Source: a virus
Taxonomy: Duplodnaviria > Heunggongvirae > Uroviricota > Caudoviricetes
Direction: 5' to 3' (one strand)
Virus record (IMG/VR): IMGVR_UViG_2721755721_000003
Coordinates: 1 to 46,307 of that record
Length of the DNA stretch: 46,307 nucleotides
This document shows positions 2,039-32,785 of the stretch, one piece after another. The position numbers and the translations under genes are program-made. How positions within the stretch are numbered: the stretch's first letter is position 1; each line of letters begins with the position of its first letter. Under the pieces are notes generated by a model. The model was not told where the DNA came from and did not search any database. It was given only the letters and a program-made list of their open reading frames with translations.

Positions 2039-2398
2039 TCAGAGCCGTATGTTTGTAGCGGGTTCAATACTGATAATTTCTGCTGAGATAAGCATTCCGG
2101 CAAGCCATAGCTCTCCGATCAAGTTTTCATCCTTGCATTTCACGCCGCCGATATTAATGGTGGCGATGATATCGCGCTCATCCTCGACTTCTTCATAAGG
2201 CAGCGTTTCGTACAGGCTTTCAATAGCGCAACTGATAACATCGAGTCCGGTCAGGTTGCCACCGACAGTGACTTCGAATGTTTCGCGGTATTCCCTTAGC
2301 CCGAAAGTTAATCGAACGGTTTGTTTTGCCATGCGTCCGCATAACGTCAGATTTGGGTCATAGTTCATTATTTGCGGTTGAGTATTATGAGTGTTCAT
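2039..2398 (-). CDS. Hypothetical protein (about 119 aa)
   Basis: ORF with ATG at 2398 (alternative upstream start at 2470 would overlap the preceding gene). Confidence 0.45.
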   Translation of the reverse strand: MNTHNTQPQIMNYDPNLTLCGRMAKQTVRLTFGLREYRETFEVTVGGNLTGLDVISCAIESLYETLPYEEVEDERDIIATINIGGVKCKDENLIGELWLAGMLISAEIISIEPATNIRL

Positions 2399-2438
2399 CT
2401 GCTTTTCCCTTAGCCCGGCGGCCTGCCGGGCATATAAG

Positions 2439-3266
2439 TTATTTAACCTGGATAAAGGGTGTATTGGCACTGCTGGTCATGTATTGCGGCAGTGTGCCGT
2501 TCCATTTATTGATGGCTTCCAGCTCCATAACTCCGGGGTTCTGGCGCAGAGCTTCACCGCGTAAACGAATAGCATCGGCTTCGGCCTGGGCTTTTGTGCG
2601 AATTGCATCTGCCTGTCCGGCAGCCTCCGCACGCAACATGTTGGCTTCCGCTTCGCGCTGTTTTACTTCCTGCTCGCGTTGCAGGGTTTTCTGGTTTGCC
2701 GTGACTTTGGCGTTAATGCTGTCGATAACGGTTGGCGGGTACTCCGGTTTACCTACATAAGACAGGCTCATTACCTGAATACCGATGGGCGTCATTTCTG
2801 CCTGAATATCTTTTAGAGCTGCATCCAGTAGTTCAGATTTGCCACCGTCGATAAATTTATCAGTGGTCATTTTGCTGGCCAGCCGATTTAGTGCATCTGC
2901 TATCTTCTGGCGCAGGTCGGTGTCGGTAATGTCATCCACACCTTTGCGGTAGGTTTGAAACACCGTGGTAACTTTGGATGGATCAACCTTGTAGGCTACT
3001 CCGATGTGGTAACCAATGGTTGTTCCATCGCTCATCTGGAAACTGAATGGATCATCGTAGGTCTTCATCTGCTTAAAGGTCGGGAAGATATAAACTTCAG
3101 TGTTCCAGCCTGTCCAGTAGCGACCAACACCGACCACTTCACCGACGCCTTTGTCGTCGCCAAGTTTGTTGACTTTGATGCCCACATTACCAGGCTCAAC
3201 ACGATCACAACCGACAAGGCCAATGGCAGGCAGAACAATGGCTAAAGAAAAAATAATTTTTTTCAT
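2439..3266 (-). CDS. SPFH/band-7 (prohibitin/HflKC-like) domain lipoprotein
   Basis: N-terminal signal peptide with lipobox (AIGLVGC); SPFH-like core; C-terminal Ala/Glu/Gln-rich coiled coil (QREQEVKQREAEANMLRAEAAGQADAIRTKAQAEADAIRLRGEALRQ). Start overlaps the stop of the upstream gene. Confidence 0.75.
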   Translation of the reverse strand: MKKIIFSLAIVLPAIGLVGCDRVEPGNVGIKVNKLGDDKGVGEVVGVGRYWTGWNTEVYIFPTFKQMKTYDDPFSFQMSDGTTIGYHIGVAYKVDPSKVTTVFQTYRKGVDDITDTDLRQKIADALNRLASKMTTDKFIDGGKSELLDAALKDIQAEMTPIGIQVMSLSYVGKPEYPPTVIDSINAKVTANQKTLQREQEVKQREAEANMLRAEAAGQADAIRTKAQAEADAIRLRGEALRQNPGVMELEAINKWNGTLPQYMTSSANTPFIQVK

Positions 3267-3451
3267 CTTTTATCCTTAGTGAAAGAAAGCCCCTTATAAA
3301 TGGCATAAATGCATGGCGGGGTCAGAAACGCCAGTGCAAAGCCAGAAATTACCGCTACCGTATCCTTCATTGATATCAGAAACGGGACGAGTAATCCGTA
3401 AATGCATGCGATAATTGCCAGTGATATGACTATTCTGAAATAAATATTCAT
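3263..3451 (-). CDS. Small membrane protein (62 aa, two predicted TM helices)
   Basis: Hydrophobic segments IVISLAIIACIYGLLVPFLI and VAVISGFALAFLTPPCIYAIY; strong AGGAGG RBS; stop overlaps the SPFH gene start and its start overlaps the upstream gene stop. Confidence 0.6.
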   Translation of the reverse strand: MNIYFRIVISLAIIACIYGLLVPFLISMKDTVAVISGFALAFLTPPCIYAIYKGLSFTKDKR

Positions 3452-3726
3452 GCTCCTCCTGATATCTTTCTGATTGCCTTTTTCAACTTTTTACTGTTAT
3501 TCACGCTACAGTAAATTTCGGCAATCTCACGTGATAACATTATTTCTCCACTGTTTTTATCTATAGCAACGAGACCGGGATTGTCTCGTATGAGTTTCTT
3601 TATCATTGGCATTGCCATAAAGTCTTCTGGCGTATAGATGCGTGTATGGCGGCGAACGTGTTTTATCACAGGTGTTTTATGTTTTGACTCAACCTGAAAT
3701 ACATTAATTTTATTCTGATTTGACAT
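3448..3726 (-). CDS. Hypothetical protein (92 aa)
   Basis: ORF translationally coupled (ATGA overlap) to the small membrane protein gene; no recognisable motif. Confidence 0.5.
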   Translation of the reverse strand: MSNQNKINVFQVESKHKTPVIKHVRRHTRIYTPEDFMAMPMIKKLIRDNPGLVAIDKNSGEIMLSREIAEIYCSVNNSKKLKKAIRKISGGA

Positions 3727-3728
3727 AT

Positions 3729-4310
3729 TTAATGTGCCACTGGTGTTTCTGGCATACCATGAGTATTCAGATCGTGAATCATTTCATCCAGAAGAAGTTC
3801 AAGCCCTTCTCGTCCCATAGCAGAGACAATGAAGCCATTATCAGGATCTGCGATGAGCATTTTTTGATAGAGAAACAGAACTCGCCCCATGCCTTCAGCT
3901 TCGCCATATTTTTCAATGAATCCCCATTCGACATGGTTTTGCAGGGCAATGCGAATTGGTTCAGGGTATATACTCATGCAACCATATTTCCCCTTATAAA
4001 TAACTGCACGATATGTAGTCCCATTATCGTTAGGGATATCAACGGTGCCGTTCCTGACTTCCTCTTCATTTATAAACGTCGTAACATACAGCCAGCGCCA
4101 TTGAGCAACTTTCATATCGACGGATAATTTTCCCAGCAATCCGGCATCATCCGCTTCAGCAAGGCACTGAAGAATTCTTAAACCGCGTGAATTTGGATAA
4201 TCATATTCACCATCATTAAGTCGCTGTACGGCCTCGGCATAATCTATGGTTGTATTGCCAATTTTTATACCGTATGGCGTAACTTCTGGTCGGAACTCTG
4301 AATGATTCAT
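3729..4310 (-). CDS. Hypothetical protein (193 aa)
   Basis: ATG at 4310 with AAAGGAG RBS; stop of upstream 62-aa ORF overlaps its start; no recognisable family. Confidence 0.6.
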   Translation of the reverse strand: MNHSEFRPEVTPYGIKIGNTTIDYAEAVQRLNDGEYDYPNSRGLRILQCLAEADDAGLLGKLSVDMKVAQWRWLYVTTFINEEEVRNGTVDIPNDNGTTYRAVIYKGKYGCMSIYPEPIRIALQNHVEWGFIEKYGEAEGMGRVLFLYQKMLIADPDNGFIVSAMGREGLELLLDEMIHDLNTHGMPETPVAH

Positions 4311-4495
4311 AATGTTTGCTCCTTTGCTGGTGGAATAATAGTGTAACCCGCTCTTTTTACCATCCACAAAAATGTATCCGTGCAGCCAACAAATTCATTA
4401 TCCAACAGATGTTTTGAGTGAATTACCTTCCCATTTTCAATGGTCAACAACACTCTGACTTTTTCATGTGTTATGTTCTGTTCTTTTTCTTCCAT
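4307..4495 (-). CDS. Hypothetical small protein (about 62 aa)
   Basis: ATG at 4495 preceded by GGGAG RBS; translationally coupled to the downstream 193-aa gene. Confidence 0.5.
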   Translation of the reverse strand: MEEKEQNITHEKVRVLLTIENGKVIHSKHLLDNEFVGCTDTFLWMVKRAGYTIIPPAKEQTL

Positions 4496-4701
4496 TGATT
4501 TATCTCCCATATGCTTTGCGCAAATACAGGTTGGCTATATGAAGATAAGAGTCTCCATGTTGTGCAATGAGGCAGGCTGTTTTATACGATGCCTTATTTT
4601 TCAGGAAAGTCATAACTGAGTTCCATCTGTGAATAAAGGTTGTAACAATCCCCGGCGATAAAACCGTAATAAACGTTCAGGGCATATTTGTTGTTATTGT
4701 G

Positions 4702-5058
4702 CTAATTATTTTCGGCAGCAGCTTTTGCATACTCACATGCAAAATTCAGAATTTCGCTGCCGAGTGTTTTCGTTTCGTGATTACTGGAAATATGTAATAC
4801 CTGTGTTGCATGCAATAAATGATAAACATTTACCGCAAATGAATCAGGCTCCAGACAAATGCCTTCATAATCATCTTGTTGTGAGGTTGTTTCTGTCATT
4901 GCTCCTGAAGTGCATGCGAGCCTGCTTTTGACAATTCTCTTTCCTCTAATCACTATATCGGCAACATCTATTGCCTTTACAACCTCCGGGAGAAGTTCCT
5001 GGTTTGTATAATCAAAGTTATCAACATGGAGAACAGTTATGTTTTCGAACTTTTTCAT
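4702..5058 (-). CDS. Hypothetical protein (118 aa)
   Basis: ATG at 5058 with GAGGAAG RBS; AT-rich context. Confidence 0.55.
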   Translation of the reverse strand: MKKFENITVLHVDNFDYTNQELLPEVVKAIDVADIVIRGKRIVKSRLACTSGAMTETTSQQDDYEGICLEPDSFAVNVYHLLHATQVLHISSNHETKTLGSEILNFACEYAKAAAENN

Positions 5059-5793: not shown

Positions 5794-6450
5794 TCAGAAA
5801 ATATCCCACCTGGCATCAACCACAACACCTACTATTTCGCAATCATTGTCCATTTCTATGATTGGATATTGTGGATTAAGGGGCTTTAGAAACGCCTTTC
5901 CCATGTCAGAAATATATTTTTTGAATGTTGCTTCATTGGTGGATTTTTTTCTGGCGATGACGTAACACCCTGAAAAAACTTCTTTATCTGGGTTGACAAG
6001 GATCGACATTCCTTCAGGAAATGTTATTCCTACGGGCGAAGTCATTGAGTCTCCGTGCACTTCCAGCCAGAACCCCCTCTCACCAGCGTATTTTACAGAA
6101 TGCCTCCAATTATCCTGATCATACATGTTGTAGTCATCACCAGAAGTTGCGAATAATCCTGCCTGAACCCAGTTAATTACAGGGTAAGAGTGTGCTGTGT
6201 CTCTCTGTGGGCAGCTCTTAACATTATTTTCCCAATGCTTATCTTTTTCATCTCCGTTCTGAAGCCACTGCGGTGAACACCGCAGTGCAGCTGCAACTTT
6301 AAAAAGGGTGTCACCGTTGAAACTTTTTGTAAGGCCTTGCTCGGCTTTACTGATTGCAACTCTGGTGATCCCAGCTTTTTTAGCCAACGCATCTTGTGTT
6401 AACCCAGCTTTTTGCCGTGCGTTGATGAGACGTTCACCTAAAGACTTCAT
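5794..6450 (-). CDS. cI: CI-type prophage repressor (HTH + LexA-like S24 autopeptidase domain)
   Basis: N-terminal XRE HTH (LTQDALAKKAGITRVAISKAEQG) and C-terminal S24-like region (HGDSMTSP ... KK); flanked by operator repeats; start at internal ATG 6450. Confidence 0.85.
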   Translation of the reverse strand: MKSLGERLINARQKAGLTQDALAKKAGITRVAISKAEQGLTKSFNGDTLFKVAAALRCSPQWLQNGDEKDKHWENNVKSCPQRDTAHSYPVINWVQAGLFATSGDDYNMYDQDNWRHSVKYAGERGFWLEVHGDSMTSPVGITFPEGMSILVNPDKEVFSGCYVIARKKSTNEATFKKYISDMGKAFLKPLNPQYPIIEMDNDCEIVGVVVDARWDIF

Positions 6451-6472
6451 TTTTCTTCTCCTCTCATGGCTG

Positions 6473-6547
6473 TTGATACTAAAGTAACAGAATTTCTTGA
6501 TACTTTGGATTCCTGTGGTTAACATCGTTGGATAACAAAGTATCTGG
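6473..6547. promoter_or_regulatory. OR-like operator/promoter region (three TTGATAC-type sites)
   Basis: TTGATACTAAAG 6473-6484, TTGATACTTTGG 6497-6508, inverted GATACTTTGTTATC within 6531-6547; lies between divergent cI and the cro-position gene. Confidence 0.5.
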
Positions 6548-14166: not shown

Positions 14167-14232
14167 ATGAACAGTTACTAGTTATATTTTACAGTAATCT
14201 CCTGATGATACACGTTCAGCAGGAGGTTATTT

Positions 14233-14850
14233 ATGAATCAAAATGTAAGACACATATTGCTGGATGCAATTGAAAATAAGAAATCTTTAACGGTAATTTA
14301 CTTAGGAGGTAGTCAGCCAGGAACATTGAGAGATATATCTCCGATAAGCATATCAGAAGATAAACTTAGGGCAAGATGCCATAGTACTAATGCTGTAAAG
14401 TTTTTTAATATTGGGAAAATACAACTACCTAGTGACTCGTCCATGATAACTGTGCCATATGGAAGCTTAGAGCTTAAAGTTTATGAGACGATGCAGAGTG
14501 TGTATGAGGACTTTCATAGCCTGTATCCGGAAGGTCGATGGGGAGTTGAATTTAATGATCATGAATTTGCTCTATTTGATTTTTTCAAAAATGGAAAAAG
14601 AAAAAAAACAGCATTTATGGCAATTCAGTTTATGGAAAGACATGAGGATGAAACAAGAACGGAGATAACAATTGATGTCAGTCTATCAGGTGTTGTGATT
14701 TCGGAGGGAGCCAGAACACCTAAAAGACGTCCGTGGGTTGTGACTGGTCCCGGGCGTGGAGAGCTAAGAACTTATTCAACGTTAGACAAAGCTGCTACAG
14801 AGTTTTTTAAGCGACTTTCATTGATGGTATCTATGGCGATTGAAACATAA
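14233..14850 (+). CDS. Uncharacterized 205-aa protein with possible N-terminal WYL-like domain
   Basis: Residues about 15-65 (LTVIYLGGSQPGTLRDISPISISEDKLRARCHSTNAVKFFNIGKI) resemble the WYL-domain pattern; C-terminal half unassigned; AT-rich gene immediately after Q. Confidence 0.55.
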   Translation: MNQNVRHILLDAIENKKSLTVIYLGGSQPGTLRDISPISISEDKLRARCHSTNAVKFFNIGKIQLPSDSSMITVPYGSLELKVYETMQSVYEDFHSLYPEGRWGVEFNDHEFALFDFFKNGKRKKTAFMAIQFMERHEDETRTEITIDVSLSGVVISEGARTPKRRPWVVTGPGRGELRTYSTLDKAATEFFKRLSLMVSMAIET

Positions 14851-32353: not shown

Positions 32354-32785
32354 ATGTTTCTGAAAACAGAACAATTTGAATATAACGGTGTGTCTGTCAC
32401 GCTTTCCGAATTGTCTGCGCTGCAGCGTATCGAGCATCTTGCCCTCCTGAAACGGCGTGCAGAACAGGCAGAATCCTGCGGCAACCTGCAGGTAAGCGTG
32501 GAAGATCTCGTCAGAACCGGCGCGTTTCTGGTGGCGATGTCCCTGTGGCATAACCATCCACAGAAAACGCAGTCACCGTCAATGAATGAGGCCGTGATGA
32601 AGATAGAGCAGGAAGTGCTCACCACCTGGCCTGCCGATGCCATTGCCCGGGCGGAAGACGTGGTGTTGTGCCTGTCCGGGATGATCGAAGCTGTTCGTCC
32701 GGATACTGATATTACTGAAGTGGCGAAAAATAACACGCTGACTGATGATGATTTTTCTGCGGGAAAGTCTTCGACGGCGAGCTGA
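32354..32785 (+). CDS. G: Tail assembly chaperone G
   Basis: 143 aa, lambda gpG-like; ends just after the slippery heptamer. Confidence 0.85.
   Translation: MFLKTEQFEYNGVSVTLSELSALQRIEHLALLKRRAEQAESCGNLQVSVEDLVRTGAFLVAMSLWHNHPQKTQSPSMNEAVMKIEQEVLTTWPADAIARAEDVVLCLSGMIEAVRPDTDITEVAKNNTLTDDDFSAGKSSTAS

Follow-up and report, generated by a model that had tools for sequence, protein, structure and literature searches.

The DNA analysed here is a stretch of 46,307 nucleotides from a virus of the Caudoviricetes (IMG/VR record IMGVR_UViG_2721755721_000003; hereafter the window), which comprises a phiP27-like lambdoid prophage and host flank. On its minus strand, within positions 2039 to 3726, lie two adjacent genes encoding a 62-amino-acid protein with two predicted transmembrane segments and a 275-amino-acid lipoprotein of the SPFH superfamily, and it is this pair that is considered below. 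A 2.7-kb query was 99.7% identical to E. coli MS8345, in which the prophage lies in yecE, next to yecN.

A first-pass annotation of the window had described an operon of three overlapping minus-strand open reading frames (ORFs) of 92, 62 and 275 amino acids that ended at the SPFH gene. The three ORFs are arranged as described, with the tetranucleotide ATGA at both the 92-/62-residue junction (ATG 3451-3449, TGA 3450-3448) and the 62-/275-residue junction (ATG 3266-3264, TGA 3265-3263). The overlap of the SPFH start codon with the stop codon of its partner suggests that the two are translationally coupled, and the AGGAGG ribosome-binding site reported for the 62-residue ORF was found at 3460-3455, 3 nt 5′ of its start codon. 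Two more small genes follow, as had been noted, the second of them outside the interval given above, but the operon extends beyond the SPFH gene. Read along the minus strand, the order is repressor, helix-turn-helix (HTH)/CII-like protein, several small ORFs, the 92-, 62- and 275-residue ORFs, DUF5406, DUF4222, a 48-residue ORF, xis and int, and the SPFH pair is inside this leftward (pL-side) early gene block. Of the three ORFs and the two small genes that follow them, all except the 92-residue ORF match curated families at E<1e-15, indicating that they are real genes rather than chance ORFs.

The 275-residue protein begins with MKKIIFSLAIVLPAIGLVGC followed by Asp. Its lipobox, L-V-G-C with the cysteine at position 20, follows a hydrophobic signal peptide and conforms to the pattern [LVI][ASTVI][GAS]C; the cysteine is kept in at least 90% of a diverse family alignment. 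The SPFH assignment, made initially from the translation, was borne out by a profile search: residues 22-208 matched positions 2-176 of the 176-position Pfam profile Band_7 (PF01145) with 107.5 bits (cut-off 23.6; E=1.1e-30), and PHROG 200 matched at E=3.2e-114. An AlphaFold2 (AF2) monomer model, which was built from a 32-sequence alignment and has a mean predicted local distance difference test score (pLDDT) of 73.9, contains a signal helix, a beta-rich SPFH domain, helices, a single 65-residue helix rich in Ala, Glu and Gln (residues 178-242) and a disordered tail, with strands at 20-94, helices at 96-161 and a further strand at 163-175. The SPFH fold is thus present on structure prediction, and a Foldseek search against the Protein Data Bank (PDB) gave full-length matches, of which HflC/HflK (7vhq) was the best (E=3e-13), followed by matches to erlin1/2, prohibitin, stomatin, flotillin, QmcA-YbbJ and major vault protein (240-299 aligned columns); those to HflK/C, erlin, prohibitin, stomatin and flotillin have probability 1.00. 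The coiled-coil tail that had been proposed was recovered in the model as helix 178-242, which aligns with the coiled-coil helices of HflK/C, prohibitin and erlin and, on this model, is the counterpart of the coiled coil that forms the wall of SPFH cages. Beyond the helix, an alignment of 30 diverse members revealed a conserved C-terminal tail with the motif NPxxxxLxxIxKW-N/D-GxLP...P, in which Trp255 and Gly257 are invariant across the family; residues 254-275 are disordered in the monomer model (pLDDT <50). The 275-residue protein is a genuine full-length member of the SPFH superfamily.

Among solved structures, HflK/HflC (7vhp, 7vhq, 7wi3) is the best match by both sequence (HflK, E=1.4e-3) and fold. 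The phage protein shares with HflK/HflC the order of SPFH domain, long helix and C-terminal tail, as well as an N-terminal inner-membrane anchor and a largely periplasmic bulk, both of which are predicted here. However, identity is only ~17%, and the protein misses the equivalog cut-offs of both HflK (TIGR01933, 22.7 bits against 159.4) and HflC (TIGR01932, 24.6 against 134.4). HflK and HflC each use a transmembrane helix and form a heteropair, whereas the phage protein has a predicted lipid anchor, is encoded by a single SPFH gene and has its transmembrane segments in a separate 62-residue hairpin. Orthology with HflK/HflC was rejected because the cut-offs were missed and because there is no two-gene K/C pair with transmembrane helices. 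Erlin1/2 and prohibitin 1/2 (9vvj, 9o9u, 8rrh) gave the highest TM-scores (template modelling; 0.55-0.59) at similar length; they too are anchored N-terminally on a non-cytoplasmic face, and they form closed cages. They differ in being eukaryotic proteins of the endoplasmic reticulum or mitochondria with 15-18% identity to the phage protein, in forming hetero-oligomers of two paralogues and in lacking a hairpin supplied in trans.

The 62-residue protein contains two hydrophobic segments, as had been reported, separated by the turn SMKDT and followed by a basic C-terminus, and it matches PHROG 1130 (E=4.8e-24), a family that also recognises N4 gp19, KpCHEMY26 gp28 and PVP-SE1 gp115. Hydropathy and charge distribution predict a topology with both ends in the cytoplasm (N-in/C-in), as in class II holins and pinholins, which would place the turn motif P23-x-L-I-S27-x-x-D30-x3-V34-x2-G37 in the periplasm. 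Among 49 partners with less than 60% mutual identity, conservation is confined to the end of the first transmembrane segment (TM1), the short turn and the start of the second (TM2), with Pro at 94%, Leu/Met at 92%, Ser at 94%, Asp/Ser at 82% and Gly at 85%. Since the turn is the sole periplasm-exposed part of the predicted hairpin, it would be the only region able to touch a periplasmic lipoprotein. Elsewhere the partner diverges quickly, being 25-27% identical between this prophage and P88 or RCS47, against 92-93% for the SPFH protein.

SPFH proteins are also found in operons with NfeD proteins (QmcA-YbbJ, 8z5g; YqiK-YqiJ; archaeal PH1511-PH1510), and an NfeD-like identity for the hairpin had been suggested as a possibility to search for. 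The likeness lies in the arrangement: there, as here, the SPFH gene is adjacent to, co-directional with and overlapping a small membrane-protein gene, and QmcA is itself a structural match to the phage lipoprotein (Foldseek rank 35). The likeness does not extend to the partner, for which no Pfam match was found at E≤0.1 (the same holds for the 92-residue protein); two transmembrane segments and short tails make up its 62 residues, too few for an oligonucleotide/oligosaccharide-binding (OB) fold, and an NfeD partner was rejected. The orientation would differ as well: QmcA faces the cytoplasm, while the phage SPFH domain is predicted to be periplasmic and lipid-anchored.

The first-pass annotation had assumed that the SPFH protein works with a dedicated small membrane partner. 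This holds well beyond the window. We collected 199 loci carrying family members from annotated phages and from four single-protein scans of viral contigs, located the SPFH ORF in each with a hidden Markov model (HMM), and built a partner HMM from 18 upstream two-transmembrane ORFs. In nearly all lineages a two-transmembrane ORF of 55-84 residues lies immediately 5′ of the SPFH gene; a partner homologue was found upstream on the same strand in 195 of the 199 loci and in 21 of 23 SPFH clusters defined at 80% identity, and none of the 199 loci had a partner match on the opposite strand. The commonest junction between the two genes is a 4-nt overlap, while rV5-like and DL54-like phages have one small ORF between them. 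No third conserved gene family was common to more than three of 26 representative loci. At one locus (L091) the partner gene lies downstream of the SPFH gene, and in phage RCS47 a 78-residue two-transmembrane homologue (L003, 4775-5011, minus strand) that overlaps the SPFH start by 20 nt is unannotated in RefSeq.

The two proteins also occur as one. Of the 270 family proteins retrieved, 19 themselves include a partner domain: 17 with the domain at the N-terminus, found among the 150 listed representatives of clusters at 50% identity (P0124, P0131, P0133, P0138, P0142, P0144, P0146, P0147, P0162, P0169, P0171, P0172, P0178, P0186, P0200, P0208 and P0240), one representative with a C-terminal fusion (P0134) and the P1-like protein P0002, whose in-frame fusion (L201, 2501-3544) was found in two independent assemblies. 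The N-terminal fusions are 322-392 residues long and consist of the hairpin, a linker of 15-45 residues, a hydrophobic segment that usually carries a lipobox cysteine, and the SPFH domain. Such a polypeptide would have a self-consistent topology, starting in the cytoplasm, with TM1 running out, TM2 in and the third segment (TM3) out again, which places the SPFH domain in the periplasm. The fusions retain the internal lipobox cysteine after the third hydrophobic segment, raising the question of internal lipidation or cleavage of a polytopic precursor. Taken by themselves, the architecture and linkage of this two-gene unit are very likely to be as described.

The 92-residue ORF does not belong to the unit, although the three genes had been presented as one cassette that might be conserved across prophages. 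This ORF, whose product is basic, matched no family in Pfam, PHROG, NCBIfam or PADLOC. Only six of 83 close relatives have it together with the pair, and it was found in a single one of 50,697 phage records, that of ASU11, where it is 87% identical and unannotated. Alignment with ASU11 by blastn shows what is mobile. Positions 1612-2368 and 3445-4600 align at 89% and nothing aligns between them, so that the 1,076 bp in the window, which run from the partner through the SPFH gene and a stem-loop to codon 10 of DUF5406, are replaced by 32 bp. Because ASU11 keeps the 92-residue ORF without the cassette, the unit comprises two genes and the 92-residue gene is part of the backbone; a three-gene unit was rejected on these grounds.

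A second comparison comes from P1-type phages, whose flanks (ban, tRNAs, upl/plp) are 98% identical and enclose either tciA/B/C, a TerB-like tellurite/colicin resistance cassette, or the SPFH pair. Together with the other contexts, this either-or arrangement identifies the pair as exchangeable cargo, and the ASU11 and P1-type sites agree with the initial view that it is accessory rather than part of a lambdoid core. In the P1-like locus with the fused gene (L201), a called gene ~700 bp downstream of the fusion (4229-4804) has a Tad2-like (anti-Thoeris) Pfam match, which suggests that this slot collects counter-defence or accessory cargo. The pair in the window is not a classic moron with its own promoter and terminator: no convincing promoter or terminator was seen on either side of the cassette in a consensus scan, and the GC-rich stem-loop 3′ of the SPFH gene (-17.1 kcal/mol, z=-1.8) lacks a U tract, whereas canonical terminators stand at the equivalent place in N4 and KpCHEMY26.

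Although accessory, the pair is not a feature of prophages in particular, and on this point the initial description stood only in part. By tblastn (E≤1e-10) the lipoprotein was found in 385 phage records, and an exhaustive search of 50%-identity cluster representatives returned 216 clusters at E<1e-30 and 932 at E<1e-10. Carriers include phiP27, Stx2 phages, P2-like P88, P1-like RCS47 and Burkholderia phiE125. Virulent N4 itself carries the lipoprotein (PMBT57, classified as Enquatrovirus N4), as do N4-like phages of Klebsiella, Erwinia and Enterobacter, rV5-like and Ea21-4-like phages, Pseudomonas Bruynoghevirus, Caulobacter phiCbK-like phages, crAss-like phages and Lak megaphages. Both proteins of the window belong to the catalogued families PHROG 200 (‘lipoprotein’) and PHROG 1130 (‘membrane protein’), and no family-level difference separates them from N4 gp20/gp19, phiP27 L05, P88 gp12/gp11 or PVP-SE1 gp117/gp115, to which identity ranges from 62 to 98%. 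Identity of the mature SPFH protein between lambdoid, P2-like and P1-like phages is 92-98%.

In the contexts examined, the pair is among early or middle lytic genes in virulent and temperate carriers alike. In P88 it lies in the early operon, before the replication gene; in N4-like phages the RNA polymerase II genes lie on one side of it and the replication genes on the other, and a canonical terminator stands at its end. The pair occupies the middle region in N4 and early regions in N4-like, rV5-like and Bruynoghevirus phages, and in rV5-like phages other small membrane proteins surround it. Just upstream of gp19-gp20 in N4 PMBT57 (L005, 2407-2721) is a gene whose product matches Pfam PF17420, GP17 ‘superinfection exclusion gene product 17’ (E=2e-56), which we take to be the P22 gp17 family.

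The side of the membrane on which the lipoprotein would reside can be predicted from its N-terminus. Asp at position +2 after the lipidated cysteine is the classical inner-membrane retention (Lol-avoidance) signal in Enterobacterales; the protein in the window has it (Asp21), and so do 100 of 105 lipobox-bearing close homologues. Homologues without a lipobox retain an uncleaved hydrophobic N-terminus (L099, L106, L107, L136 and variants in which the cysteine is replaced by Trp, Tyr or Phe), and a transmembrane anchor of this kind would leave those proteins anchored only in the inner membrane. From both observations the predicted location is the periplasmic face of the inner membrane, the topology of HflK/C. 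The replacement variants (LVGW/Y/F-DR, IIGY-DR; P0045, P0046, P0052, P0053 and P0114-P0120) come from Klebsiella and P1-like plasmid lineages, and each change is a single nucleotide away from a cysteine codon. Lipidation is impossible in such proteins, whose signal peptide probably stays on as a transmembrane anchor, and loss of the cysteine appears to have happened repeatedly.

These results suggest the following model. The 62-residue protein would span the inner membrane as a helical hairpin whose two ends face the cytoplasm and whose short conserved turn is periplasmic. The translationally coupled 275-residue protein would be exported, lipidated at Cys20 and kept on the periplasmic face of the inner membrane by its +2 Asp, where it would oligomerise through the long helix and the conserved C-terminal tail (KW[ND]GxLP) into a ring or cage; a cage is expected because all full-length SPFH proteins of solved structure (HflK/C, prohibitin, erlin, stomatin, flotillin, QmcA) assemble into a closed ring or cage by way of these two parts. 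The cage would fence off a patch of inner membrane. HflK/C or erlin carry their transmembrane fence in cis, and here the hairpin would provide it in trans. Transcription would follow induction as part of the leftward early operon in the prophage, and would accompany that of early or middle genes in virulent phages; on that timing the module would act during lytic development. We place the probability of this chain as a whole, a two-piece periplasm-facing SPFH cage with an unspecified lytic-phase role at the inner membrane, at roughly 0.45.

Several observations weigh against the model or against the role proposed for it below. The monomer structure is only moderate in quality (pLDDT 73.9). The fusions are predicted proteins, many of them metagenomic, and the DNA was checked for one only; moreover, when the natural fusion P0002 was modelled with AF2, the partner region came out at pLDDT <60, with no confident contact to the SPFH domain. 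Searching eight proteins of the region with PADLOC at E≤0.1 gave no match, and the two module proteins have no exclusion-related Pfam match. Finally, the extreme conservation of the mature SPFH protein suggests that its target belongs to the host and is itself conserved, not a phage component that evolves fast, and this favours explanations involving FtsH or membrane homeostasis over exclusion.

Ranked by probability, the roles that such a cage might play are insulation of the inner membrane, capture or modulation of FtsH, lysis timing and conversion of the lysogen. The first-pass annotation had put forward a superinfection-exclusion or envelope-stress module, which stays a conjecture. We tentatively put first that the module insulates the inner membrane of the infected cell, either by excluding superinfecting genomes or by protecting membrane integrity. 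The early expression inferred for the pair favours this role, as do the GP17 neighbour in N4, the exchange with a colicin-resistance-type cassette in P1, and a predicted location that is the same as that of T4 Imm and Sp and P22 SieA. These, as proposed for the phage pair, are small phage-encoded proteins of the inner membrane or periplasm. T4 imm and sp are early lytic genes. SieA blocks the passage of DNA across the inner membrane (PMC10883804). It differs from the phage pair in being expressed from the prophage, and none of the three has an SPFH domain or any sequence or domain similarity to the phage pair.

The conservation of the SPFH protein is more readily accommodated if the cage mimics HflKC and captures or competes for host FtsH, thereby stabilising FtsH substrates such as CII-like regulators, sigma-32, LpxC or small phage membrane proteins, in the manner of lambda CIII, which has the same operon position. 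FtsH is the established client of HflK/C, the periplasm-facing SPFH cage of E. coli. The closest solved relative of the phage protein by sequence is HflK, its top structural matches are HflC/HflK, its predicted topology (N-terminal anchor, periplasmic SPFH domain) is theirs, and a conserved host target agrees with how little the mature protein varies. A CII-like regulator is also encoded upstream in the same leftward block: directly downstream of the cI-like repressor and on the same strand, this gene heads the block that holds the SPFH pair, a position that makes it relevant to a mechanism of the FtsH/HflK type. However, the bit scores given above exclude orthology with HflK or HflC, identity is low, there is a single SPFH gene rather than a heteropair, and many virulent phages with no lysogeny decision to make carry the pair. 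We therefore regard FtsH capture as unlikely, although it stands second among the roles considered.

Lower still is the probability that the pair times lysis, the two-transmembrane protein being holin- or antiholin-like and the cage sequestering either this protein or the real holin, so that lysis is delayed as in N4 lysis inhibition. The partner does have the size, the predicted N-in/C-in topology and the charged C-terminus of class II holins and pinholins, and N4, a carrier of the pair, shows an unexplained lysis inhibition whose trigger system is uncharacterised (PMC12642591). On the other hand, a late lysis cassette with a class II holin, a lysozyme and a lysis protein is already present in the prophage, ~25 kb from the pair, and none of the phages examined has the pair next to an endolysin or anywhere but among early or middle genes. 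N4 rapid-lysis mutants hit gp61, gp63, gp50 and the terminal repeat rather than gp19 or gp20, and the sole holin Pfam match was insignificant (E=0.044).

A lysogenic conversion function, in which the lipoprotein is made in the lysogen and aids the bacterium by making the envelope more robust or by acting as a TLR2-active vesicle lipoprotein, is likewise improbable. Its precedent is PM0222 of Pasteurella multocida, an HflK/C-like protein from a lambda-like prophage island that is reported to occur in outer-membrane vesicles and to be needed for virulence (PMC9872710), although the likeness follows from the published description and not from sequence comparison with this family. The cassette is an indel among related prophages and some part of the 2.7-kb query is present in 909 of 5,426 complete E. 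coli genomes. Yet no promoter was detected before the pair, which lies inside a repressed leftward early operon, virulent phages carry it, and the +2 Asp predicts retention in the inner membrane rather than a surface location. The remaining alternative, that the 275-residue protein is the serine protease named in phiP27 and Stx2 phage records, has a practically negligible probability: it is favoured by GenBank product names only, whereas signal peptide, SPFH domain, coiled-coil helix and tail account for the whole protein, Pfam and NCBIfam contain no protease, transposase or hydrolase match to it and the model has no such fold, and the identity was rejected on domain content and model fold.

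The coordinates of the features discussed are collected in Table 1. Further into the prophage, at ~14,200-14,600, four tRNA genes (Ile, Lys, Thr, Gly) stand between the gene for an antitermination protein and the class II holin gene, corresponding to 1993969-1994278 of the MS8345 record and to 32470-32779 of locus L199. In Stx phages, stx would sit at the position of such a tRNA cluster; no stx gene is annotated in this prophage.

Table 1. Features of the leftward gene block in the window (positions are those of the window).
Feature	Positions	Strand	Basis or remark
int	1-1314	minus	last of leftward gene order
xis and 48-residue ORF	between int and DUF4222 gene	minus	
DUF4222 gene	1765-2007	minus	Pfam; outside 2039-3726
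DUF5406 gene	2039-2398	minus	Pfam
Cassette indel relative to ASU11	2369-3444 (1,076 bp)	none	blastn; 32 bp in ASU11
GC-rich stem-loop GCCCGGC-AGGCC-GCCGGGC	2413-2431	minus	8 nt past SPFH stop; inside cassette indel
SPFH lipoprotein, 275 residues	2439-3266	minus	ORF; Band_7, PHROG 200
Conserved C-terminal tail, residues 243-275	2442-2540	minus	alignment of 30 diverse members
Long Ala/Glu/Gln-rich helix, residues 178-242	2541-2735	minus	AF2 model
SPFH/Band_7 domain, residues 22-208	2643-3203	minus	Pfam envelope
Lipoprotein signal peptide, residues 1-20	3207-3266	minus	lipobox; Cys20 codon 3207-3209
Hairpin partner, 62 residues	3263-3451	minus	ORF and ribosome-binding site; PHROG 1130 match
Basic 92-residue ORF	3448-3726	minus	ORF only
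HTH/CII-like protein, 167 residues	5187-5690	minus	PHROG 4836 ‘CII-like regulator’, E=1e-40
cI-like LexA-family repressor	5794-6525	minus	

Phage SPFH lipoproteins have been noted in genome papers, which call their role unclear (PMC13239085; PMC8540360; PMC4936722; PMC10892097). In the literature searched we found no functional study of this phage SPFH family and no description of a conserved pairing of PHROG 200 with PHROG 1130 or of fusions between partner and SPFH protein. A preprint on N4 lysis describes the superinfection-exclusion system of N4 as uncharacterised and makes no mention of gp19 or gp20 (PMC12642591). Both families had already been catalogued in PHROG, with no function assigned to either. 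Homologues in GenBank are labelled serine protease, transposase, peptidyl-tRNA hydrolase or HflK (MK268344.1, OM835951.1, KU682439.2, AJ298298.1), and one paper considers that the SPFH gene may be a lysogeny marker in therapeutic Pseudomonas phages; none of the protease, transposase, hydrolase, HflK and lysogeny-marker labels is supported by domain content. The ‘serine protease’ label probably derives from ‘membrane protease subunit’, an old name for HflK/C and stomatin-family proteins. Domain analysis thus corrects a recurrent misannotation (serine protease, transposase, ‘lysogeny marker’) in the records of therapeutic phages.

SPFH proteins are universal membrane organisers whose functions in bacteria are poorly defined, and the viral version has a minimal, non-NfeD partner. 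That its carriers span so wide a range, E. coli prophages and N4 as well as crAss-like and Lak phages, points to some general step of infection that takes place at the inner membrane. Possibly, though we advance this with some reserve, the pair is the first recognised viral SPFH nanocage, with a lipoprotein wall and a hairpin fence supplied in trans, with which both virulent and temperate phages of diderm bacteria would, soon after infecting a cell, close off a patch of inner membrane or put it to new use, either as a general barrier against superinfecting genomes (in N4 possibly as the trigger for both exclusion and lysis inhibition) or to hijack FtsH. With only two genes in ~1 kb and with E. 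coli phages as carriers, the system is experimentally tractable, and nature provides both fused versions and a relative with an empty site. Its study could show what an SPFH cage does, and the pair might prove to be the missing superinfection-exclusion or lysis-inhibition factor of N4.

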